64,000 bases of DNA from Planctomycetota bacterium (GCA_035649575.1 DASRJH010000031.1:2746-66745), one strand, 5' to 3'; shown: positions 3,298-13,859, counted from the first letter of the stretch. Numbers and translations: made by a program. The notes: generated by a model from the letters alone, not told the origin.

Positions 3298-4674
3298 ATG
3301 AGCACACGAACCATCCCGGTCGCACGCGACGATCGCCTCGAGGTCGACATCGAGGGCCTCGGCGACGGACCCGACGGCATCGCCCGCATCGGCAACTACG
3401 TGATCCTCGTGCCCGGCGTGCTCCCGGGCGAACGCGCCTACGTGCGCATCACGTCGGCAGCGCGCAAGTTCGGCCGCGGCGAGCTGCTGGCCGTGCGCAA
3501 GGCCGCTCCCGAGCGCGTCGCGGCGCGCTGCCCCCACTTCCTGGCCTGCGGCGGCTGCCATCGCCAGCACCAGGACTACGGAGCACAGCTGCAGGACAAG
3601 CAGCAGCGTCTGCAGCGCGCGATCACGTGGGCCCTCGGCGACGAAGCTCCCAAGGTCGCGCCGCCGATCCCCGCGGAGCCACCGTTCGGCCAGCGCCACA
3701 AGGTCGTCGTGCACCTGCGCAACACGCGCGACGAACGCCTCGAGGCGTGCTTCCATCGCCTGCGCAGCCCCGAGCTCGTCGCCGTGCGCGAATGCCCGGC
3801 GAGCCAACCGCGGGCGTGGGCGATCGCGATGGCTGCGGTGGCCCTGCTGCACGAGCTGCCGCACGGCGCATGGGATCCCGACTTCGCGCCGAACGACCTG
3901 CTGCGCAGCGTGCTCGTGCGCACGACGATGACGGGGCAGGCCCACGTCGTGCTCGTCGCGCGCCAGCCCATGATCCCTGGCCTCGAGCGCGTGCTCGACG
4001 ACCTGCACGAAGCCGGCGCGACGACGATCAGCTGCAACGGCAACGACGGCGAGTTCTCGCGCCTGCTCGGTCCACAGACCACGATCGTCTCGGGACCACC
4101 GCGCATCGAAGAACGGCTGCTCGAAACGCACTACCTGCTCTCCCCCGATACGTTCTTCCAGACCTCACCCGAGGGCGCCGAGCACCTCGTGCGCCTCGTC
4201 ACCGAGTGGCTGGCGCCGACGAGCCAGGACGACGTCGCGGATCTCTACTGCGGCGGCGGCCTGCTCACGCTGCCGCTAGCGCGCACGGCGAGGAGCGCGC
4301 TCGGCATCGAGCTCAGGACCGCGACGATCTCCGACGCCGAGGCGTCCGCGCGCAGAAACGGCCTGCGCAACGTGCAGTGGCGCTCGGGTCACGTCGAGAG
4401 CTGGCTGCGCGCGTGCCGCCACGGGCAGCTGCCCCGCCCCCACCTCGTCGCGATCGATCCGCCGCGCACGGGGCTCGAGCCCGTGGTCATCGACGAGCTG
4501 TGCCTGCTGCGGCCGCGCCGCATCGCCTATGTCTCGTGCGAACCACGCGCGCTGCAGCGCGACCTGCAGGCACTCGCGACTGCAGGTTTCCGCACGCGGT
4601 CCGTGCAGCCGATCGACATGTTCCCACAGACCGCCCACATCGAGGCAGTCGCGATGCTCGAACGCAGCACGTGA
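3298..4674 (+). CDS. rlmD: 23S rRNA (uracil-5-)-methyltransferase, RumA/RlmD family (TRAM domain, Fe-S cysteine cluster, SAM-dependent methyltransferase)
   Basis: MSTRTIPVARDDRLEVDIEGLGDGPDGIARIGNYVILVPGVLPGERAYVRI is TRAM-like. CPHFLACGGCHRQH is the Cys cluster. DLYCGGGLLTLPLA is the SAM motif. C-terminus YVSCEPRALQRDL..DMFPQTAHIEAVAMLERST. ATG 3298 chosen over the track start 3256. Confidence 0.85.
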   Translation: MSTRTIPVARDDRLEVDIEGLGDGPDGIARIGNYVILVPGVLPGERAYVRITSAARKFGRGELLAVRKAAPERVAARCPHFLACGGCHRQHQDYGAQLQDKQQRLQRAITWALGDEAPKVAPPIPAEPPFGQRHKVVVHLRNTRDERLEACFHRLRSPELVAVRECPASQPRAWAIAMAAVALLHELPHGAWDPDFAPNDLLRSVLVRTTMTGQAHVVLVARQPMIPGLERVLDDLHEAGATTISCNGNDGEFSRLLGPQTTIVSGPPRIEERLLETHYLLSPDTFFQTSPEGAEHLVRLVTEWLAPTSQDDVADLYCGGGLLTLPLARTARSALGIELRTATISDAEASARRNGLRNVQWRSGHVESWLRACRHGQLPRPHLVAIDPPRTGLEPVVIDELCLLRPRRIAYVSCEPRALQRDLQALATAGFRTRSVQPIDMFPQTAHIEAVAMLERST

Positions 4675-4684
4675 GAAACAGCGC
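4657..4684. repeat. attL-type core (direct repeat copy 1), covering the last rlmD codons and its TGA stop
   Basis: Exact 28-bp match to 10842-10869, read directly from the sequence. Confidence 0.85.
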
Positions 4685-4794
4685 GTAGGGCCGCTTTGCC
4701 CTCAGTTCTCAGCATTCTAGTGTTACGTGCAGGAGCGTGCAAGAGCGTGCACGAAGAGGCGCGAGAAGTGGACAGTTTCGGCCGATTTGGACAG

Positions 4795-5745
4795 TCACTG
4801 TCCACTCGGCGAGGACGGGCCACGAGCACCCAGTCGGTGCTCGATCACCGGTCGGAGATCCTTCGCCAGCTGCTCGGGCGTCTCCCACACGATGTGCAGC
4901 AGCTGGCGGGTATCGAACGGCAGCTTGCCGAGCTCGCCCTTGCGCACGGTCCAGATCACAGGTTTCCCGAGGCCTTCAGCGAAGCCGGCTTCGTACATGA
5001 CGCTGGCGCTAACGCCTGTAGCATCCGCAACCATGGCACGCGACCGACGAATCGCGACGAGGATGTGGGCGTCGATGCGATCGCCGTGCGCCGGTTCTCG
5101 ATCGACGCGCAGCGGTGAGTAGCCGGCACTGCGGATGCCCTTGCTCAGACCGTTGTCGTAGACGTCGCTCATAGAAGAATCGAACCACATGGCGACGAAG
5201 ACACGGTCGTTGCGCAGCGGCGACTTGTCGATCTCCTCCAGATGGAGGTAGCCGGCAAAGGTGAGTCGCACTCGGAGTAGGCCGTCTTGGGGGTCAATCC
5301 CGAGGCTCTCGAGGCGCCCCTGCTGGACGGCCGCGGCGACGAGGAACAGCATGTCCTCGCGTCCTCCCGTCCACACCAAAGCGGCATCGGTCTTCAGGTT
5401 CAGAGGAACCGCGTCGTTGAGAGTGTTGCTGCGCGACTCGACCAGACGGAGAAGCATGTCGAGCTGCTCGCGCACGCCATGCTCAGGCAGCCAGGATCTG
5501 AGACTGTCGAGCGATTCAGCGAGAGACGGGTATCCTGACTCGCGATTGTTCCGCTGCATTCGGAGCCACGCGGACAGGCGTGGCCATGCATCGAACCTGG
5601 GATCCCGTCCAAGCTCCTCCACCATGTCGCGGTGCAGCAAGAACAAGCCGCAGCGGGAACACTCGAAGCACTCGAGCGACAGGTCCGACGAGGATATGGT
5701 GTCCGCGGACTCCCAACAAACTGGGCACTTGCTGGGATGCTTCAT
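4795..5745 (-). CDS. Zinc-ribbon protein with a C-terminal nucleoside 2-deoxyribosyltransferase-like (NDT/TIR-like Rossmannoid) domain; candidate effector or toxin
   Basis: ATG 5745 overlaps the TGA of the upstream ORF (ATGA). MKHPSKCPVCWES...ECFECSRCG gives two CxxC pairs. C-terminus RVFVAMWFDSSMSDVYDNGLSKGIRSAGYSPLRVD...ILVAIRRSRAMVADATGVSASVMYEAGFAEGLGKPVIWTVRKGE...LPFDTRQ matches the FVAMxF...ADxT...YExGxAxGxGKPVI pattern of NDT-like domains. Confidence 0.75.
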   Translation of the reverse strand: MKHPSKCPVCWESADTISSSDLSLECFECSRCGLFLLHRDMVEELGRDPRFDAWPRLSAWLRMQRNNRESGYPSLAESLDSLRSWLPEHGVREQLDMLLRLVESRSNTLNDAVPLNLKTDAALVWTGGREDMLFLVAAAVQQGRLESLGIDPQDGLLRVRLTFAGYLHLEEIDKSPLRNDRVFVAMWFDSSMSDVYDNGLSKGIRSAGYSPLRVDREPAHGDRIDAHILVAIRRSRAMVADATGVSASVMYEAGFAEGLGKPVIWTVRKGELGKLPFDTRQLLHIVWETPEQLAKDLRPVIEHRLGARGPSSPSGQ

Positions 5746-5891
5746 TTGTCGCCAGCACTGCCCTCGCCCGGCATGGCCATCCGCCCAGGGGAATCGACGG
5801 CGCCTACACCCAGGCGCGCCCGCCGCACCCACGTCTTCGCGGTGCCGCGCGGGATGTTGAGCGCTGCAGCCTCGAGTGCGCGGGCGCTCAT
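5742..5891 (-). CDS. Small (49 aa) helix-turn-helix protein, excisionase/MerR-like (HTH_17-type pattern)
   Basis: ATG 5891 overlaps the antitoxin TGA (ATGA at 5888-5891), and its own TGA overlaps the next ATG (5742-5745). MSARALEAAALNIPRGTAKTWVRRARLG resembles the LGVSRSTVYRWVRxGRL-type HTH. Short ORF, so moderate confidence. Confidence 0.55.
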   Translation of the reverse strand: MSARALEAAALNIPRGTAKTWVRRARLGVGAVDSPGRMAMPGEGSAGDK

Positions 5892-6091
5892 GGCCTTGCC
5901 TTGCCTGCCTTCGTGGTCCTCGGCTTCGGCATGGTGAACGGCTTGCCCTCGAGTCGCTCGAAGTCGGCCAGCGGCACGAGGGCGAACTTCGGACGGCCGC
6001 GGTGCGTGCAGACCACGCGGGCGCCTGCGACGACAGCCTGCGCGACTTGCGTCAGATTCCACCGCAGTTCGTCGGCCGGGATGGTCTTCAC
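5888..6091 (-). CDS. Phd/YefM-family type II antitoxin-like protein (67 aa)
   Basis: VKTIPADELRWNLTQVAQAVVAGARVVCTHRGRPKFALVPLADFERLE follows the Phd/YefM consensus (xTVsaxEaRxNLxxxxxxVxxGexVxITRxGkPvAvLVsxxeyErL). GTG 6091 has AAGG 9 nt upstream. The longer track ORF (to 6526) has an Arg/Pro-rich, junk-like N-terminus. Confidence 0.7.
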   Translation of the reverse strand: MKTIPADELRWNLTQVAQAVVAGARVVCTHRGRPKFALVPLADFERLEGKPFTMPKPRTTKAGKARP

Positions 6092-6367
6092 TCGCCGCAA
6101 CCTTAAGGTTCCGCGGAACGCCGTCAATCCCCTGGTCGCGATTCCGTCTCGTCGCGCGCCCCCGCTTGGCGAATCCTCGTCGCCGGGGCTACTCTGCCGG
6201 CAGCACACCGCGGCCCGCTCGGCTTCACCCGGCGCCTGGGAACTGAGGTTGCCGGGCGGCCGCGCACCTCCCGGACGTAGGCATGCGTCGTGGTCATGTC
6301 CCTCCCTTGACGTCACGGCGAGGCCTGCTAGCTTCCGCGGCTCACAGCCACAAACGAGGAGGCACGA

Positions 6368-8335
6368 ATGATCTCGTCTCTGAGCGGTCTTGGTGCGGTG
6401 GTCTTGCTGGCTTCGCTGACCTCGGCGCAAACACCGCCAAACTACTATGTGAGCAACGGAGGCAGCGACACCAACCAGGGATCGATTCAGGCACCTTGGG
6501 CGACTCTCGGCAGGGTCCGGCAGCACGCGGATGACCCTACGAAGGGTTTCGCCGCTGGTGATTCAATCAATCTGGAACGCGGCAGCTCGTGGACCGACGA
6601 ACTGCTCATTTTGCCGAACCCAAGCCCAACTGCTAATTCGAATAGCGGCACTTCGGGCAGCAAGATCCGCCTGCAGGCCTATGGCGTTGGGCCGGCTCCG
6701 GTCATCAAGGGACTAGTTCAGCGCGTCGGCACCCGCGTCCAGCTGCGCAACGTCGAGCACTGGATCATTAGCGGTCTTCGCTTCGAAACTTCGCACCATG
6801 GGGTCCTCCTGTCCAACTCTACGACGCCCCACACGGTCCTTCACGGTGTCGAAGTGCACAACTGCTACTTCAAGGATATGGATGATCGCGGCAATTCGTT
6901 TACCAATTGTGGTATTCTGATCCACGGCTCGGCCCAGCAGGTTGACTGGCAAGACATCAGCATCAGCAACTGCATCTTCGACACTGTGTCAAACGGTGTG
7001 AGTAATGTTGGGTCCACCAACAACATCAGCATTGTCGACTGCGCGGCTTTTGGTGGCCTGTCCGCTGGCTTTTCACTTACCCATGTAGCGGGAGGTACTG
7101 TGGCTGGGTTCAGTGTTCGTGATGTTGGCGGAACCAGTTCGTTTGGGTCTTGTGGCGCCGCCTTGATCTTATGCGACGATGTAATAGTCACCGACTGCTC
7201 GATCTCCGGCGTCCGACACGATGGTGGCCTTGACGGCGTCGGATTTGATTTTGAGGCGGGCTGCAGGAACTGCACCTTGCGTCGCAGTTACATTTTCAAT
7301 AATGAGGGTGCTGGCATCATGGTCATGAGCGGGAACACCTTGCCGCTACAACACAATAGCTCACTCGTCATCGAGGATTGTCTACTGTACAATAACAACA
7401 CCCGTTATCAGCTTCCAGGGGCACCCGGCTTTCCCGCTGTAAATTCGGAACTTTTGTGCTTTCATGCGCTGAACAATGGCGTCATGAGAAACGTTGGTGT
7501 CTACAGGAGAACTACTACTACAGCTACCTACAACCACTTCAGCACCAATTGGGGCGGCTTCACAATAGAACCTAGTGTCATCACGGGTGATTACTGCGTC
7601 GGATGGAAACCTGTCTATGGAAAGTTCTCGCAGCTGGACGTTGGGGGCAATGGAAACATCGTCGGTGTGGAAGCTGGTAAGGTGCTTGTGTGGACCCGTG
7701 AATTCCTGGGCAATTGCTGGACCAACGTCACAGGTAACTTTGGCCCGTTCCTCAGCGCTAGTATCGGTTGCGACGGTGTGTTGTGGGCCGTTAAGAACGA
7801 CTTCTCCGTATGGGGGTACGATGGAGGCTTCAATTGGAGTACGCGAGGAACTGTGGCAATGAAACAGATTTCCGTCGGGCAACTCCCCCCGTTCACCCCT
7901 CCTCCCACTGTGATGGAAGACAATGTTTGGGGGATTGATACGCAGAGTACACCCCAAACCTGGAGATGGAACCAGTCGTTGTTGCCCACTCCTGCTTGGG
8001 AGTGGGTCTCTGGGAACACCACTCAAGTCGATGCTGCCGCAACTAGAGGCGAAGGTGCCTGGGCTGTTTTTGCATCCCAACAGCCGCCATTGGTCTATCG
8101 TATCCAGAATCCTCCCACCCAAACATGGCAGCAGGTAACTACACAGCCGCTCGACCAAGTGTCCAGCACGAACTTCAATGCTGCCGTCGGGGTATATGGA
8201 AATGCCGTCTGGCTGACAAGGGATGGGGGAGTGTCATGGTCTCAGCTTCCGGGCCAGCTAACTCAAGTCGCCGAGGGAAGTGATGGTGCGCTGTGGGGGT
8301 TGGACGCGAACGGGCACGTTTGGAGATTCAATTGA
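6368..8335 (+). CDS. Secreted right-handed beta-helix (pectate-lyase-fold-like) protein with a C-terminal tectonin/TECPR-like beta-propeller repeat region
   Basis: GGAGG lies 7 nt before the ATG. Signal peptide MISSLSGLGAVVLLASLTSAQ. N-terminal YYVSNGGSDTNQGSIQAPWATL plus periodic N/C/I-rich rungs (VHNCYF, ISISNCIF, ISIVDCAA, VIVTDCSI, CTLRRSYIFNNEGAGI). C-terminal W-rich repeats (VLWAVKNDFSVWGYD, NVWGIDTQ, NAVWLTRDGGVSW, GALWGLDANGHVWRFN). A/T is frequent at third codon positions, unlike neighbouring genes. Confidence 0.8.
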   Translation: MISSLSGLGAVVLLASLTSAQTPPNYYVSNGGSDTNQGSIQAPWATLGRVRQHADDPTKGFAAGDSINLERGSSWTDELLILPNPSPTANSNSGTSGSKIRLQAYGVGPAPVIKGLVQRVGTRVQLRNVEHWIISGLRFETSHHGVLLSNSTTPHTVLHGVEVHNCYFKDMDDRGNSFTNCGILIHGSAQQVDWQDISISNCIFDTVSNGVSNVGSTNNISIVDCAAFGGLSAGFSLTHVAGGTVAGFSVRDVGGTSSFGSCGAALILCDDVIVTDCSISGVRHDGGLDGVGFDFEAGCRNCTLRRSYIFNNEGAGIMVMSGNTLPLQHNSSLVIEDCLLYNNNTRYQLPGAPGFPAVNSELLCFHALNNGVMRNVGVYRRTTTTATYNHFSTNWGGFTIEPSVITGDYCVGWKPVYGKFSQLDVGGNGNIVGVEAGKVLVWTREFLGNCWTNVTGNFGPFLSASIGCDGVLWAVKNDFSVWGYDGGFNWSTRGTVAMKQISVGQLPPFTPPPTVMEDNVWGIDTQSTPQTWRWNQSLLPTPAWEWVSGNTTQVDAAATRGEGAWAVFASQQPPLVYRIQNPPTQTWQQVTTQPLDQVSSTNFNAAVGVYGNAVWLTRDGGVSWSQLPGQLTQVAEGSDGALWGLDANGHVWRFN

Positions 8336-9259
8336 TGGGTCATCCGGAAGTCGCGTTGGTAGCTGAGGCCAACTGATCTTTGGTTGAACTACTGCGCCGA
8401 AACGAGCGACGACGTAGTGCCAGTCCCAACGGAACGAGCCGGCGCCGTCGCGGCGGAATCTGCTGGGCACGAACTGAAGCCGGCTCGACGCCCGCACGCT
8501 TGGCACGAGAATCTTCTCCTCGTCGACACCAAGGTCCGGAATTGGCTCCTCTGGCGGGCCTGGATCAGCGGGCTTGGGGATCACACGCTGCAGCTCGAGC
8601 ACAGCCTTCGTCACGGTGTCGCTGCACAGTTCGGGATCGCGCTCGAGTTCGCGCAACGGCGCAGCATTGCCGCCGACCGCGAACACGGCGGCGATGGCTT
8701 GGGGCACGAACACACGGAAGCCAGTCCGCAGACCCCACACGAGCTCAAGTCGTTCGTCGATCGGGCTGCGACGGATCACGGGCTCGCTCTGGACCGTGAC
8801 GCCATGGACCTCTCGACGGGCTCGCTTCCGCCCCGTCCGTCTTTCCCACTCCGCCGTCAGGCGCTCGCGAGCAACTTCTGCAGGATGTCGAAGCCGGTAG
8901 CGAAACGGAGAGCGCGCCGAATCATCGGTTCGGTCGTCGTCGCCCGGATCTTCGGCATCAACGCGCTCATGCTGGTCGCGTCCGGTGGTCCTGATGTAGC
9001 CGGGCCATGGCGCGGCGCGCGCGCTGATCTGGCTCCCCGTCCATTGGTTTTCATCGTCTGGATACCGCTCCCACGGCGCGAGCGACTCCAGCATGCACAA
9101 CAGATCGGCCACAGCCCGAGCCGGCGTCGGCCGCACGAGTTCGCTGCCGTCGTTGTCGACGAACACCTCGAACCCTTCCGGCAACGCCGGCCGCGCGATC
9201 GCTGCGGGCTGCGGTGCCGGCACCGTCGCGGCCCCGCGCCTCTTCTTGCTGTTCGCCAT
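8258..9259 (-). CDS. Hypothetical protein immediately downstream of the integrase (island-borne)
   Basis: Coding-like composition with no recognisable motif. ATG 9259 (MANSKKRRGAATVP) preferred. The last ~45 codons run antisense through low-GC DNA and overlap the 3' end of 6368..8335 by 78 nt, so the native C-terminus may have been replaced. Confidence 0.5.
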   Translation of the reverse strand: MANSKKRRGAATVPAPQPAAIARPALPEGFEVFVDNDGSELVRPTPARAVADLLCMLESLAPWERYPDDENQWTGSQISARAAPWPGYIRTTGRDQHERVDAEDPGDDDRTDDSARSPFRYRLRHPAEVARERLTAEWERRTGRKRARREVHGVTVQSEPVIRRSPIDERLELVWGLRTGFRVFVPQAIAAVFAVGGNAAPLRELERDPELCSDTVTKAVLELQRVIPKPADPGPPEEPIPDLGVDEEKILVPSVRASSRLQFVPSRFRRDGAGSFRWDWHYVVARFGAVVQPKISWPQLPTRLPDDPSIESPNVPVRVQPPQRTITSLGDLS

Positions 9260-9365
9260 CGCGTTCGCCTCACGCAATCGCCTGCAAGGAAGTGTCGGTG
9301 GCAGCCGCGCAGGCGAGCACGACCCGGCGCGGGTGCTACCCGCACCGTTGCCACCGACGGTGAAT

Positions 9366-10667
9366 CTAGCTCGCTCCCACGATCTGGTCGAGCACGCGCA
9401 CCGCGCGAACCTGCTCGGCGGCGCTGCTGTGATAGTAGCGGCTCGTCGTCGCGATGTTCTTGTGGTTCGCCGCGGCCGACGCGGCCGCGATGCCCGCCTC
9501 GTTCACGACGCGCGTGACGGCGGTATGGCGCAGTTCGTGGTTCGTGAAGTCCTCGACGCCGGCCTTCGCCGCTGCGATCTTCACGTGAAGCCGATACGCC
9601 ACGGTGTTCCAACGGTCGTTGAAGCGTCGCCGCATCGGTTGCTTGCGACGCCGGCCGGCCGCGTGGCGGTCGGCCATGCGCTTGGCCGGCGAGAAGATGA
9701 AGGCCTTCGGCAGCGCCGGGAAGCGCTCGAGGATCGCTTGCGCCTCCTTGCCGAGCAGGTAGCGCGTGACATGCCCCAGGTGCTCGGTCTTTGCGCCCTC
9801 GACCGTGTAGATCCAGGTGCCGTTGGGGCCGTTCTTGTTGATGTCCGCCCAGCGCATCAGGCAGACGTCGCCGGGCCGCATCGACGTCTTCAACTGCAAC
9901 CGCATCATCGCCGCGACCTGGCTGCAGCAGTGCGCGGCGACCAGCTCGATGTCTTCCACGGGCACCGCGCGCCGGGCTCGCTTCCCGTGCTCCGGCCGGC
10001 CGGAGCACTGGCCGGGCTTCAGGTTCGACAAGCTGGCGCAGTCGAGCCACACCGGCTTCGGCACGAGCCCGCGCGACTCGCCCCACCTCAGCATGTCCTT
10101 CACGAGCCAGACCCATCGGTTGATCGTCTTGCGCACGTGGTCGGGGTAGTCGGCTTCGATGCGGTCCCGCCAATGCACCAGCAGGGCTTCCTTCAGCCGG
10201 CGCACCGGCACGGCGCCGGCGAACTCCTCGAACAGCGTCAGCACGCGGCGAGTCAGCCGCCGGCGTGACGTCTCCTTGCGGTGCTTCAGGAAGCGGCCCG
10301 TGGCGACGATCCACGCCTGGTACTGCGCCGACAGCTCGCGCACCGTCAGTATCGCCTCGTTTGCAGTGATCGCACGCGGCCCGATCGGCTCGCGTCCATT
10401 CTCGTTCCACTCCTCGAGCAACTCCGCGTAGCGCTTGTGCGACGCCGGAGTGCCCCAGACGCCGAGGTAGTGCGTCTTGCCGTTGAGCCGCACCCGGGCT
10501 TGCCCCGAACTGTGCTTCGTCATCTTCGGCAACCGAGACGTCGCGCCCCTTGCCTTCTCAGTCGTCGCCGTCGTGCCGTTGTCATCCGCGCGCATGCCGG
10601 TGCAGTCGAGCGAATCGACGGCACACGAGGGCGCGCCTTCGCGTCCCTTCGAAGTGATCTTGACCAT
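9366..10667 (-). CDS. Tyrosine-type site-specific integrase
   Basis: N-terminal ARVRLNGKTHYLGVWGTPASHKRYAELLEEW is typical of the integrase arm-binding/SAM-like region. Catalytic elements MRPGDVCLMRW (Arg), HELRHTAVT (HxxR) and NHKNIATTSRYYH (His...Tyr). Alternative starts at 10595 or 10523 are possible. Confidence 0.9.
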   Translation of the reverse strand: MVKITSKGREGAPSCAVDSLDCTGMRADDNGTTATTEKARGATSRLPKMTKHSSGQARVRLNGKTHYLGVWGTPASHKRYAELLEEWNENGREPIGPRAITANEAILTVRELSAQYQAWIVATGRFLKHRKETSRRRLTRRVLTLFEEFAGAVPVRRLKEALLVHWRDRIEADYPDHVRKTINRWVWLVKDMLRWGESRGLVPKPVWLDCASLSNLKPGQCSGRPEHGKRARRAVPVEDIELVAAHCCSQVAAMMRLQLKTSMRPGDVCLMRWADINKNGPNGTWIYTVEGAKTEHLGHVTRYLLGKEAQAILERFPALPKAFIFSPAKRMADRHAAGRRRKQPMRRRFNDRWNTVAYRLHVKIAAAKAGVEDFTNHELRHTAVTRVVNEAGIAAASAAANHKNIATTSRYYHSSAAEQVRAVRVLDQIVGAS

Positions 10668-10794
10668 CGCCTTGGCCTCGATTTGGACAGTCGACTGTCC
10701 ACTTTGGAGGAGGCGGTGCTACGCCTCGCTTCTCACTCCACGCGCAACGCGCGACGCGGAACCGAGCTGCGTTCGTCGTTCTGGAGCACGTCGC

Positions 10795-10859
10795 AGCTCG
10801 ACATGTTCCCGCAGACCTGCCACGTAGAGGCCGTGGCGTGCCTCGAACGCAGCACGTGA
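10795..10859 (+). pseudogene. Diverged duplicate of the rlmD 3' end (island-side arm of attR)
   Basis: Encodes ..LDMFPQTCHVEAVACLERST* versus the genuine ..IDMFPQTAHIEAVAMLERST* at 4618-4674. There are three amino-acid differences in the last 19 codons, and no methyltransferase body lies upstream. Confidence 0.7.
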
Positions 10860-10869
10860 GAAACAGCGC
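10842..10869. repeat. attR-type core (direct repeat copy 2)
   Basis: Exact 28-bp match to 4657-4684. Confidence 0.85.
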
Positions 10870-10896
10870 CGAAAGCCGGTTCACCCTCGTCACCCC

Positions 10897-11418
10897 TCAT
10901 GAGGAACCACTCTTCGTCGCGTGGTGCAGGCCGGCGATCGCATGCGCGACCTCGGCCGCCAGACCTGCGGCAATCCCCCCCGGGCCATCCTCACTGGTGC
11001 TCGGCTCCAGCTTGCCGTGGGTGTGTTCGACGGGCGCCTGCGGTGCGGCTTTCAGTTCGCCATCCTGGAGCCACGCGAGGAACCGCTGGAACAGGAACCC
11101 CTCGTCGATCGTGTTCCCCATCGCCCAGAAGATGCCCACGCCGAGCGCCTTGGCCAGGTTCGGGCGCCTGGCGACCGTGAAGACGTAGACCGCGACCGGA
11201 TCCGCGAGAACGAACGACTGCCCTCGGAAGGACGGCAGCGTCCTGAGCCCACCGGGAACCGGCCACGGCATCCGTTGCGCCAGCTTGTAGACGGGACCGA
11301 ACTCGTCGACGCGGAGCGCCTTCACGACGTGCCCAGGCCCATCGTGTCGATCGGGCGAGTGCGGAGGGAAGAGCTCATCGGAGAGCCCTCCCTCCCGGCG
11401 TGCGAACTGAGGACCCAC
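10897..11418 (-). CDS. Hypothetical protein
   Basis: Non-junk composition (FVLADPVAVYVFTVARRPNLAKALGVGIFWAMGNTIDEGFLFQRFLAWLQDGE). No motif recognised and the start is uncertain. Confidence 0.45.
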   Translation of the reverse strand: MGPQFARREGGLSDELFPPHSPDRHDGPGHVVKALRVDEFGPVYKLAQRMPWPVPGGLRTLPSFRGQSFVLADPVAVYVFTVARRPNLAKALGVGIFWAMGNTIDEGFLFQRFLAWLQDGELKAAPQAPVEHTHGKLEPSTSEDGPGGIAAGLAAEVAHAIAGLHHATKSGSS

Positions 11419-11627: not shown

Positions 11628-13859
11628 TCACCGCGCCACGCACTGGGCTAGAGCAGTCAGGAAGTCCTCGGCCCAGGTGATCGCCGTCGTGCGGCCGACC
11701 GCGGCGAGCAGCCGCGCGTGGCGCGAGCGCCGCTCGTCGCCGTCCATGCGCAGCGCGCGGTCGAGGTCGCGCGCGAGCCCGTCGCAGTGCCAGGGATTCG
11801 TCAGCACCGCGTCGCCGAGCTCGACAGCGGCGCCGGCAAACCGCGACAGCACCAGCACCCCCGGATTCGCAGGATCCTGCGCGGCGACATACTCCTTCGC
11901 GACGAGGTTCATGCCGTCGCGCAGCGGCGTCACGTAGCCGACCGCGGCGGCGCGATACAGCAGCGCGAGCTGATCGTGGCTGAACGCGCGATACAGATAC
12001 CGGATCGGCACCCAGTCGGCGTCCCCGAACTGGCCATTCACGCGGCCGACGATCAGCTCGACGCGTTCGCGCTGTTCGACATACTCCGGCACGTCCCCGC
12101 GCGACGGCACCGAGATCTGCACCAGGCTCACGTGGCGCCGCCACTCCGGCTGCAGCTCGAGCAGCCGCGCGAACGCGGACAACCGCTCGGGGATGCCCTT
12201 CGTGTAGTCGAGGCGGTCGACGCCGAGCACCATCTTGTTCGGCGCGATCGCGCGCATCAGCTTGTCCACTTCGTCCATGCTCGCGGCGTCCGCGGGCTCC
12301 TGGAAACGCTCCGGGATGATGCCGATCGGGAACGCGCCGACGCGCGTCCGGCGGCCGCGGAGCTCGACGACGTCGTCGCCGACGCGCGTGCCTGGCAGCG
12401 CCGCGGCGCACTCGCGGAACGCGCTCGCGTAGCCGGGCGTGTGGAAGCCGATCAGGTCGAGCGACAGCATCGCGGTGAGGAGCTGCTCTGCCCACGGCAG
12501 TACGAAGAACACGTCCGGACCGGGGAACGGCACGTGCAGGAAGAGACCCAGTGGACCGGTGTGGCCGCGCCGCCGCAGCCGGTCGCCGAGCAGCAGCAGG
12601 TGGTAGTCGTGGATCCACACCGCGTCGCCGGCGCCGACGAGCAGCTGCGCGGCGTCGGCGAAGCCGTCGTTCGCCTGCTCGTACGCGGCCCAGTCGCCGT
12701 CGGCGATGCGCACACGTGTCGGGAACGAGTGCAGCAACGGCCAGAGGGCGCTGTTGCAGAAGCCGTTGTAGTAGTCGCGGCGCCACGCTTCGGGCAGGTC
12801 GACCCAGGCGAGCTCGGGTTGCCCGGTGTCGTCGAGCCCGAACTCGGTGATGCCATCACCCGGGGCCGTGCGGCCGCTCCAGCCGAGCCAGATGCCCTGG
12901 CGCGCGCGCAGCGCCGGCTCGAGCGCGGACACGAGCCCACCGACGTTGCGCTTGCCGCCGTCGCCGTGGTTGTTGGAGCGCAGCTCCGGCAGCCGGTTGG
13001 ACACGACCAGCAGCCGGTACGACCTCGCGGCGGCGGCCGGCCGGCGCTGTACGGGCACGGGCATGGGCTGCAGCTCCGCGCCCGGCGTGCCGCCGCGCAC
13101 CGCGACCAGCGAGCGCAGGAACTGCCGCGCCTCGCGTGGAGCGTCGAGCCGCCAGCGCGCCGCGGTCGCGCGGGTGCGGTCGTGGCCGACGGCGATCGTC
13201 TCGCCGTTGCCGTGCACCGCGCGGAACATGTCCTCGTCGGTCACGTCGTCGCCGATCGCGAGCAGCCGGCACCCGGCGCCGGCCTGGTCGCGCAGCCAGG
13301 CCAGGGCAGTCGACTTGTCCATGCGAGAGGGCCGCACCTCGACGACGCGCGCACCTCGCAGCTCGTGGAACGACGGATGCGACCGCAACCACGCCTCGAT
13401 GCGGCTGCCCACCTCGACCAGCGCGGCTTCGCGGTCGGCACGTGCGATCGCGCGGTAGTGGAAGGCCACCGACCACGTCTTGCGCTCGACGATCGCGCCG
13501 GGATGGCGCCGCGCTGTGCGTTCGAGCTCTTCGGCGAGGTCGGAGACCTCGTCGCGCGAAGCGCCGGCGAACTCCTCCCACGCGCCGCGGCCGCGCCGCC
13601 ATCCACCGTGCTCCGCGACGAGCGCCAGACCGTCGACGCCGCCGAAGAAGGTCTCGAGCTGCTGGCGCGGCCGGCCGCTGACGATGGCCGCGACGATCCC
13701 CGGCGCGCGAGCGACGTCCGCGACGAGCTCGAGCAGTTCGGCGTCGGGGCTCGCTTCGGCCGGCGTCGCCGCGAACGGCAGCAGCGTACCGTCGAGGTCC
13801 ATCACGACGCAGAGCGGCGACCACCGCGCGAGCGCGAGCCAGTCCTGCGCAGCGGTCAC
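11628..13859 (-). CDS. otsBA: Bifunctional trehalose-6-phosphate phosphatase (N-terminal HAD, OtsB-like) / trehalose-6-phosphate synthase (C-terminal GT20, OtsA-like)
   Basis: N-terminal VVMDLDGTLLP (HAD DxDGT) and AIGDDVTDEDMF. GT20 part RLLVVSNRLP..GGLVSALEP..WLGWSG..FCNSALWPLLH..IHDYHLLLL..LGVDRLDYTKGI..DGMNLVAKEY. Confidence 0.9.
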   Translation of the reverse strand: MTAAQDWLALARWSPLCVVMDLDGTLLPFAATPAEASPDAELLELVADVARAPGIVAAIVSGRPRQQLETFFGGVDGLALVAEHGGWRRGRGAWEEFAGASRDEVSDLAEELERTARRHPGAIVERKTWSVAFHYRAIARADREAALVEVGSRIEAWLRSHPSFHELRGARVVEVRPSRMDKSTALAWLRDQAGAGCRLLAIGDDVTDEDMFRAVHGNGETIAVGHDRTRATAARWRLDAPREARQFLRSLVAVRGGTPGAELQPMPVPVQRRPAAAARSYRLLVVSNRLPELRSNNHGDGGKRNVGGLVSALEPALRARQGIWLGWSGRTAPGDGITEFGLDDTGQPELAWVDLPEAWRRDYYNGFCNSALWPLLHSFPTRVRIADGDWAAYEQANDGFADAAQLLVGAGDAVWIHDYHLLLLGDRLRRRGHTGPLGLFLHVPFPGPDVFFVLPWAEQLLTAMLSLDLIGFHTPGYASAFRECAAALPGTRVGDDVVELRGRRTRVGAFPIGIIPERFQEPADAASMDEVDKLMRAIAPNKMVLGVDRLDYTKGIPERLSAFARLLELQPEWRRHVSLVQISVPSRGDVPEYVEQRERVELIVGRVNGQFGDADWVPIRYLYRAFSHDQLALLYRAAAVGYVTPLRDGMNLVAKEYVAAQDPANPGVLVLSRFAGAAVELGDAVLTNPWHCDGLARDLDRALRMDGDERRSRHARLLAAVGRTTAITWAEDFLTALAQCVAR

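Follow-up and report, generated by a model that had tools for sequence, protein, structure and literature searches.

A Phd/YefM-fold gene and a putative sensor-fused N-glycosidase gene share an operon on an integrative island of a Planctomycetota bacterium

The locus analysed in this work is a chain of three overlapping genes, named g1, g2 and g3, carried by an integrase-bearing island of a Planctomycetota bacterium. The DNA under study, hereafter the window, is a stretch of 64 kb (GCA_035649575.1 DASRJH010000031.1:2746-66745), and all coordinates are window positions. The first gene codes for a small Phd/YefM-fold protein, the second for a short product of uncertain status and the third for a protein that combines a zinc ribbon, a winged helix-turn-helix (HTH) and a domain of the superfamily that includes the TIR domains and the nucleoside 2-deoxyribosyltransferases (NDT). 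The features of the operon are the following:

6091-5888, minus strand: g1, 67 amino acids (aa), heads the operon; GTG start at 6091, TGA stop at 5890-5888
5891-5742, minus strand: g2, 49 aa, with an ATGA overlap at each end; ATG start at 5891, TGA stop at 5744-5742
5745-4795, minus strand: g3, 316 aa, closes the operon; ATG start at 5745, TGA stop at 4797-4795
5632-5745, minus strand: g3 residues 1-38, four-Cys zinc ribbon (C7, C10, C29 and C32), modelled as a three-stranded sheet
5218-5631, minus strand: g3 residues 39-176, helical linker and MarR-like winged HTH (AlphaFold2, AF2, and Foldseek)
4798-5217, minus strand: g3 residues 177-316, flavodoxin-like domain of the TIR/NDT superfamily (Foldseek, PADLOC and a sub-threshold Pfam match)
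4990-4992, minus strand: GAA codon of E252 in the YEAG motif, the predicted catalytic Glu (invariant; alignment with Rcl)
6092-6367, no strand: divergent intergenic region between g1 and a 655-aa gene, the presumed promoter/operator region from the geometry

A preliminary description of this DNA had reported three minus-strand open reading frames (ORF) joined by ATGA overlaps at 5888-5891 and 5742-5745. Re-reading of the sequence gave the same coordinates, with overlaps at 5891-5888 (g1/g2) and 5745-5742 (g2/g3) in the minus-strand direction, and all the peptide strings quoted there are found in the translations. One public cluster representative identical to g3 has a length of 254 aa, which corresponds to 80% of the protein. 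The start that gives 316 aa is nevertheless backed by the homologues, because residues C7, C29, C32 and G33 each reach a conservation of 90% or more across an alignment of 54 diverse sequences (A1); C10 is likewise conserved in a further alignment (A3). The homologue search gave 110 sequences. The shorter length would fit a gene call from an internal methionine. The promoter and terminator scan around the operon gave no sigma-70-like promoter and no usable terminator signal.

The N-terminal zinc ribbon of g3, already proposed in the preliminary description, is seen as four conserved cysteines and, in the AF2 models, as a three-stranded sheet formed by residues 13-17, 24-29 and 33-38. The full-length model, calculated with the 54-sequence alignment, has a predicted local distance difference test score (pLDDT) of 91.3, and that of residues 1-176 alone reaches 94.0. 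The top Foldseek matches of residues 1-176 in the PDB are all MarR-family proteins (probability 0.93-1.0 over approximately 80-109 columns), with modest E-values of 0.02-0.1. The fast-evolving region between residues 39 and 176 is presumed to be the sensor part of the protein.

The C-terminal domain had been assigned as NDT/TIR-like with a conserved Glu, and the structural search suggested at that time, AF2 followed by Foldseek on the 316-aa protein, matches both types of fold with probability 1.0 over residues ~177-305. Among the TIR folds are the SPARTA TIR-APAZ protein (8i87_C, E 6.8e-4), TIR-STING, AbTir and SARM1, the entries 6wt7, 7un8, 7uxu and 6o0u being matched at the same probability. 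The NDT-type folds include an NDT (8pqt), the cytidine monophosphate (CMP) N-glycosidase BcmB (4jen), DNPH1 (4kxm) and 2a0k. In BFVD, which holds viral predicted structures, the matches are CMP/hydroxymethyl-CMP hydrolase and NDT proteins and a Cap12/Pycsar TIR-domain protein. The PADLOC TIR effector model PDLC00733 also matches g3 (E 1.4e-9), and a precomputed Nuc_deoxyrib_tr (PF05014) match is present in some of the homologues. The fold is flavodoxin-like with a Glu after the central strand, as in NDT-type enzymes. This residue, E252, is invariant in the 54 sequences together with F183, A185, D241, G254, A256, F277, D278 and W287. When the g3-family profile was searched against the PDB, Rcl/DNPH1 was matched with E 7.8e-4, and E252 was placed on the Glu of the Rcl segment GVGYELGRA, which we take to be the catalytic residue of Rcl.

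The two halves of g3 differ in their conservation. The N-terminal half diverges and the C-terminal one is conserved: many relatives are 41-51% identical to g3 over the last ~150 residues only, with blastp coverage of about 41-50% of the protein, and the ribbon is degenerate in some of them.

The g3 family is very large. Its profile, searched against 1.84 billion representatives of clusters at 50% identity, recovered 5,216 of them at E<=1e-30, 16,965 at 1e-10 and 32,050 at 1e-3. The best 150 representatives are nearly all of 290-345 aa and match from end to end. To describe the genomic contexts, 238 loci were gathered from genomes, metagenomes and IMG/VR and reduced to 192 at 80% identity of the g3 homologue; those from genomes and metagenomes are among the matches listed, their relatives being at most 50% identical to g3, and 69 IMG/VR viral contigs contain a g3 relative. 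Searches with phmmer using g1, g2, E. coli YefM and P1 Phd, run on every ORF of 80 and later of the 238 loci, gave, among the matches listed, no Phd neighbour in any of these 192 non-redundant loci, which lie outside the subclade closest to g3. The 59 small, tightly linked neighbours on the same strand contain no recurrent family of the antitoxin type; one MazE and one ParE were found, once each.

The neighbours that do recur include type I/IIG restriction-modification (R-M) genes. Over the 192 loci, HsdR is found in 14, HsdM in 12, an N6_N4 methylase in 10 (some with HNH), DUF559 in 7, Eco57I/MmeI-like proteins in 4 and GmrSD in 3, in addition to integrases or serine recombinases and prophage genes. 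When 135 immediate neighbours were sampled at random, the Pfam families that came out most often were R-M or defence ones; the leading names are ResIII, SWI2_SNF2, Methylase_S, DEAD, ArgJ, N6_Mtase, N6_N4_Mtase and DUF559, and HEPN_Swt1, FRG and Schlafen AlbA_2 also occur. In plasmid p4 of Leptospira interrogans (L250, 4219-9031) the g3-family gene is flanked on one side by bSEFIR (PADLOC, 2.4e-100) and on the other by a gene for a 772-aa methyltransferase that matches the PADLOC mad2 model. This segment forms a compact defence island in the plasmid of a pathogen. On a Bacillus mycoides megaplasmid, the family copy follows ArpU and an integrase, and a distant relative occupies the lysogeny module of Streptococcus pyogenes prophage 315.2. 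The neighbour evidence thus describes g3 as a solitary gene family that is enriched on mobile elements and beside restriction and defence genes. The linkage of g3 homologues to defence and mobile contexts anticipated in the preliminary description is therefore found, with R-M genes, bSEFIR, integrases and prophage genes among the neighbours.

The protein coded by g1 passes the curated cut-offs of both PhdYeFM_antitox (PF02604, 37.7 versus 29.8 bits) and TIGR01552 (38.5 versus 20.8 bits), in agreement with its earlier designation as a Phd/YefM protein. With the evidence on g3, this indicates that the earlier domain calls for both proteins were correct. The Phd/YefM fold is formed by residues 1-50, and residues 51-67 constitute a tail of 17 residues rich in Lys, Arg and Pro. 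A similar tail of 13-17 residues follows residue ~50 in g1 and in all six relatives linked to g3. Antitoxins of the Phd-Doc and YefM-YoeB complexes have a toxin-binding region C-terminal to the DNA-binding domain. When the tails were compared, g1 and its relatives had no segment that could be aligned to the C-terminal part of YefM or of Phd. The usual partners are also absent, as had been noticed before: Pfam and NCBIfam gave no Doc, RelE/YoeB, ParE or PIN match in g2, g3 or any ORF of the island. The g1 protein is then a member of the Phd/YefM domain family in which three features of a functional Phd-type antitoxin are missing: it has neither a C-terminus for toxin binding nor a partner of known type, and its pairing is not conserved.

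The pairing was evaluated in the closest g3 homologues (44-63% identity), which were placed in their genomes by exact-protein look-up. Nine subclade loci were examined, including the window. The linkage of a Phd-like gene to g3 is confined to this small subclade, and the number of genes between the two varies from 0 to 6:

L081: Phd-like gene and g3 homologue adjacent, overlapping by 4 nucleotides (nt), with no gene between
Window: one gene between, g2 (49 aa)
L085: one gene between, for a 166-aa HTH_17 protein; prophage context with a tape-measure gene
L244: two genes between
L243: two to three genes between; the g3 homologue is split
L242: six genes between, the last one Exc/HTH_17-like

The other three subclade members, P0004 (on a short contig), P0005 and P0012 (truncated, 236 aa), have no Phd upstream; by locus, the Phd-like gene is missing from L088, L241 (a short contig) and L245-L247, where a truncated copy is placed next to smpB. 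This last copy (6001-6711) is a 236-aa g3 relative without the zinc ribbon that stands alone by smpB and was observed in 46 collection blocks; it may be an element relic or a stably domesticated copy. In the two relatives closest to the window, L081 (3965-4639, 224 aa) and L085 (5942-6733, 263 aa), a further gene follows the g3 homologue at its 3' side with a 4-nt overlap. The two followers are mutually unrelated, both have hydrophobic N-terminal stretches and one contains a Cys-rich ribbon-like motif. They have no counterpart in the window, since g3 abuts there on the repeat that ends the island.

The relatives of g1 were also placed in context. The g1-subfamily profile has 107 relatives, two of whose public records are named as Planctomycetes or Planctomycetota metagenome-assembled genomes; a scan of IMG/VR with the g1-family alignment found none. 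By reverse look-up, three relatives were located that are 55-70% identical to g1, and these homologues head operons that contain no g3 homologue. The gene orders at such loci are:

L253: Phd, 93 aa, 160 aa, integrase
L254: Phd, four small genes, integrase
L255 (5001-7692): Phd, integrase, 107 aa, DUF4238 protein
L256 (873-2077): Phd overlapping a tyrosine integrase by 4 nt

A terminase is also present in L255, and GP38 and PriCT_2 genes in L251, a fuller copy of the L253-type element. BLAST clustering joins the integrase of the window with those of L088, L253, L254, L255 and L256, and several small genes are common to L242, L244, L251, L253 and L254. Since the integrases are homologous and the small genes are shared, the Phd-like gene counts among the backbone genes of a single family of integrating elements. 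Its position directly upstream of the tyrosine integrases in L255 and L256 suggests a regulatory Phd-integrase module. With PADLOC, most of the cargo of the related elements is unmatched, including the DUF4238 protein of L255, and one protein of L088 has a weak match to the candidate model PDC-S48. In view of such sparse matches, these cargo proteins are not claimed as known defence genes. The conserved pairing of g3 with antitoxin genes that the preliminary description had expected is accordingly not observed, given the result in the 192 loci, the variable spacing in the subclade and the g1 homologues that occur without g3.

The second gene is the weakest ORF of the three and its status as a gene is uncertain. 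The GC content by codon position (0.72/0.66/0.78) is coding-like and constitutes its sole support. The excisionase/MerR-like HTH assigned to g2 in the preliminary description has sub-threshold Pfam matches only behind it (Sigma70_r4_2, E 0.015; HTH_28, E 0.042), and no significant match to the excisionase/HTH_17 family (PF12728) was obtained. A phmmer search of g2 against all the ORFs of the fetched loci found no homologue, and the comparison with the HTH_17-like proteins of L085 (166 aa) and L242 (103 aa) gave BLASTP E-values of ~1. The product may be a small HTH protein; at best it descends in degenerate form from the excisionase-like HTH family that occupies this operon position in related elements.

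The island that carries the operon has 6.2 kb, is of low GC content and bears an integrase between two direct repeats of 96 nt. Its other features are:

4608-4703, plus strand: left direct repeat, attachment-site (att)-like; holds the last codons and the stop of an rlmD-like gene
10793-10888, plus strand: right direct repeat, att-like (repeat search)
10667-9366, minus strand: tyrosine integrase (Pfam Phage_integrase, E 4.6e-15)
6368-8335, plus strand: 655-aa protein with a hydrophobic N-terminus, a right-handed beta-helix (Pfam Beta_helix, 9.3e-13) and a C-terminal tectonin part (Tectonin, 3.3e-14)
8258-9277, minus strand: 339-aa ORF downstream of the integrase

The two repeat copies are 80% identical and share an exact core of 28 nt (repeat search). 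The repeat is a duplication of the C-terminal codons of a 472-aa TRAM/U5-methyltransferase gene, which is rlmD-like, and the two copies code for the peptides DMFPQTAHIEAVAMLERST and DMFPQTCHVEAVACLERST. The last ~19 codons of this gene are regenerated by the island and hence the gene remains intact. The displaced original end is still present at 10805-10859. The insertion site is the 3' end of a protein-coding gene rather than a tRNA. A tRNA scan of the island was negative, and an Rfam scan over 4400-11000 was likewise without a match at E<=1; with no tRNA in or at the island, the element is not tRNA-targeted. The flanks have a GC content of 65-74%, against 52-70% for the island as a whole and 52-65% for its stretch with g3 and the 655-aa gene. 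The features of an integrative island, namely a deviating composition, an integrase and direct repeats on both sides, are thus found together, and the operon is indeed cargo of an integrase-bearing island of lower GC than its surroundings, as the preliminary description had stated.

Within the island, GC is at its lowest in the 655-aa gene (0.52-0.56), which suggests that this cargo was acquired separately. Its beta-helix/tectonin product is in part similar to that of a 90-aa ORF in L253 (3329-3601). The 339-aa ORF has no match in Pfam, PADLOC, PHROGs or NCBIfam and could be the replication or regulatory protein of the element. Just outside the island, a 743-aa ORF (11628-13859, minus strand) looks by eye like a fused trehalose-6-phosphate phosphatase/synthase.

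Taken as a whole, the locus is best read as the accessory end of an integrative element of 6.2 kb that has inserted into the rlmD-like methyltransferase gene at its 3' end. In this element, g1 is a backbone gene shared with related temperate phages or integrative elements, leading an operon in which small genes, an excisionase-like HTH gene and optional cargo accompany the integrase. The role of g1 would most likely be the transcriptional control of the element operon, judging from the known role of the Phd/YefM N-terminal domain. On the other hand, g3 is optional cargo found in varying operon slots and belongs to a stand-alone family of ~300-330 aa with a variable zinc-ribbon/winged-helix N-terminus and a conserved TIR/NDT C-terminus. 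By analogy with Swarozyc and with Abi-type sensor-toxin fusions, both described below, the mechanism would depend on a trigger. The N-terminal module would sense a protein or nucleic acid derived from an invader. Subsequently, this would release or assemble the C-terminal domain, which would then cleave the N-glycosidic bond of NAD+ or of a (deoxy)nucleotide. The outcome would be a defence of the abortive-infection type that benefits the host of the element. Considered by analogy, g3 is probably a sensor-fused N-glycosidase, either an NADase or a nucleotidase. We assign a probability of roughly 0.55 to this composite reading, in which g1 regulates the element operon and g3 is optional defence-type cargo with a trigger-dependent N-glycosidase.

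Several observations weigh against it. The winged helix of g3 is equally compatible with DNA binding and gene regulation. The Pfam model Nuc_deoxyrib_tr (PF05014) gives g3 19.4 bits, below its cut-off of 28.8, and there is no match to the Pfam TIR, TIR_2, TIR-like, Cap12/Pycsar TIR or DUF4062 models at E<=1. Most of the neighbours of the wider family are varied housekeeping genes (135 sampled), and the association with defence, taken from neighbour counts without a formal background, is an enrichment and not a rule. As for g1, it would bind DNA judging only from its family, and the inverted-repeat search upstream of the gene detected no convincing operator palindrome. Moreover, a Phd-like gene is upstream of g3 on the same strand in six of the nine subclade loci (window, L081, L085, L242, L243 and L244), and in L081 the two genes overlap directly, so that a functional interaction between g1 and g3 could take place.

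This last point touches the proposal of the preliminary description, a new toxin-antitoxin architecture in which a Phd antitoxin restrains an NDT-like toxin. Formulated as a type II system, g3 would be a constitutively toxic degrader of NAD or nucleotides, g1 would neutralise it and repress its own operon, and g2 would be accessory. The chain of ATGA overlaps, the scores of g1 above the Phd/YefM cut-offs and the subclade linkage, with no gene between the pair in L081, speak in its favour, and the basic character of the tail, kept across distant g1 relatives, could in principle allow docking on an acidic active site. The proposal is nonetheless improbable. Neither a Phd nor a recurrent small partner accompanies g3 in the 192 loci outside the subclade, and within it up to six unrelated genes separate g1 from g3, three members (P0004, P0005 and P0012) having no upstream Phd at all. 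Close g1 homologues precede integrases in the absence of g3, and the C-terminal regions that YefM and Phd possess have no equivalent in g1. For these reasons the new architecture is unlikely and was not upheld. A more ambitious possibility takes the zinc-ribbon/winged-helix/TIR-NDT family as a widespread, undescribed single-gene anti-phage system in which infection would be sensed by the N-terminal module and an N-glycosidase thereby activated. In the subclade of the present locus the Phd-fold protein would in addition both regulate the operon and restrain the effector, and g1 would be a regulator/antitoxin hybrid. The family has upwards of 5,000 clusters at 50% identity, and its members come from Bacillus, Leptospira and numerous further phyla. 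We regard this view, in both of its parts, as speculative, with a chance of well under one half.

The equivocal winged helix leads to a different explanation, in which g3 is a ligand-sensing transcription factor. The winged helix would bind DNA and the TIR/NDT domain would only bind a nucleotide signal, the protein controlling lysogeny or excision together with g1 and the Xis-like g2. The MarR-like fold of the middle domain agrees with this, and so do the naming of one homologue (P0026) as a MarR-family regulator in one source, the proximity of g3 homologues to excisionase/HTH_17-like genes in L085 and L242 and the presence of family members in the regulatory/lysogeny regions of prophages. Such a role in both its aspects, the sensing of a ligand and the control of lysogeny or excision, is nevertheless hard to sustain, and we judge it about as doubtful as the toxin-antitoxin pair. 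No variation is seen at the catalytic-type Glu or at either Asp across 54 diverse sequences, as would be expected of an enzyme; the fast N-terminal and conserved C-terminal halves are the opposite of what a regulator with a variable sensor would present; and many members are inside R-M operons or amid housekeeping genes and not by a cognate target operon. If g3 is an enzyme, it could also be an ordinary one for nucleotide salvage or DNA modification, an NDT or a deoxynucleotide monophosphate/CMP hydrolase that reached the island by chance. NCBI names homologues 'nucleoside 2-deoxyribosyltransferase', and sequence and structure searches match NDT, DNPH1, BcmB and the viral CMP/hydroxymethyl-CMP hydrolase. 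However, g3 does not reach the Pfam cut-off for NDT, the matched NDT, BcmB and DNPH1 chains are single domains of ~120-160 aa with no counterpart of the ~175-aa N-terminus of g3, and the contexts are those of R-M, defence and mobile elements rather than nucleotide metabolism. This explanation is very improbable, the least credible of those considered.

If the reading of g3 relatives as sensor-fused NADases or nucleotidases is true, the TIR/NDT branch of bacterial immunity would gain a further single-gene module, and a very abundant one. The cultivable carriers B. cereus/B. mycoides and Leptospira would make its role in defence directly testable. With respect to g1, the presence of a Phd/YefM-fold gene as leader of an operon with overlapping genes is insufficient as evidence for a toxin-antitoxin pair, and the fact that its family leads integrase operons suggests a regulatory, non-antitoxin use of the Phd fold in the backbones of mobile elements. 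What remains of interest is a very large defence-associated family whose activity is predicted; no long-standing question is opened by the finding.

Several known systems were compared with the operon. Three candidates for g3 were set aside from its neighbourhood: SPARTA, as there is no Argonaute nearby; a CBASS/Pycsar effector, as no CD-NTase or cyclase is nearby; and a retron NDT effector of the Retron-Eco1 type, as the ORFs of the island include no reverse transcriptase and neither Rfam nor the PADLOC retron models gave a match. In the literature, as far as it was covered, which is incompletely, neither a Phd/YefM and TIR/NADase or TIR/NDT pair nor the architecture of g3 was found described.

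The g1 protein shares with the Phd/YefM type II antitoxins an N-terminal domain above the cut-offs and the place as first gene with a stop/start overlap. It differs from them in the C-terminus and in its close homologues, which precede integrases and have no fixed partner. The domain of g3 has in common with NDT, DNPH1 (Rcl) and BcmB-MilB (PF05014) the flavodoxin-like fold, the Glu (E252 aligning with that of Rcl) and the motif G-x-A-x-x-LGKPV that follows it, whereas the score below the Pfam cut-off, the additional ~175-aa N-terminus and the mobile/defence context set it apart. The TIR NADase effectors (SPARTA, TIR-STING/Cap12, Pycsar TIR and AbTir) provide its best structural matches (8i87, E 6.8e-4). 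Unlike them, g3 is a stand-alone protein with its own N-terminal module, with no Pfam TIR match and no partner sensor nearby.

The remaining comparisons concern fused proteins. For NDT domains preceded in the same protein by an Abi-type sensor domain, a role as toxins has been predicted (PMC3710099). These fusions, which include AbiJ-NTD1 with NDT, resemble g3 in combining a variable N-terminal recognition module with a C-terminal toxin of the N-glycosidase type in mobile or defence loci. The N-terminal module is AbiJ-NTD in that case and a zinc ribbon with a winged helix in g3, and the fusions are themselves predictions. In Swarozyc, a TIR-like NADase is joined to an HTH/winged auxiliary domain, which is reported to bind the phage portal and so to activate the NADase, with depletion of NAD+ (bioRxiv 10.64898/2026.05.01.722283). 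Membership of g3 in the DUF4062/Swarozyc family was rejected for lack of a sequence match. The TIR-like domain is N-terminal in Swarozyc and C-terminal in g3, and g3 contains a zinc ribbon and does not match DUF4062 (E<=1). On the other hand, Swarozyc (KpSwz, DUF4062) and g3 are both single polypeptides that join a TIR/NDT domain, with its Glu, to a winged-helix module and are found in defence islands, and Swarozyc is the best functional analogy for g3.

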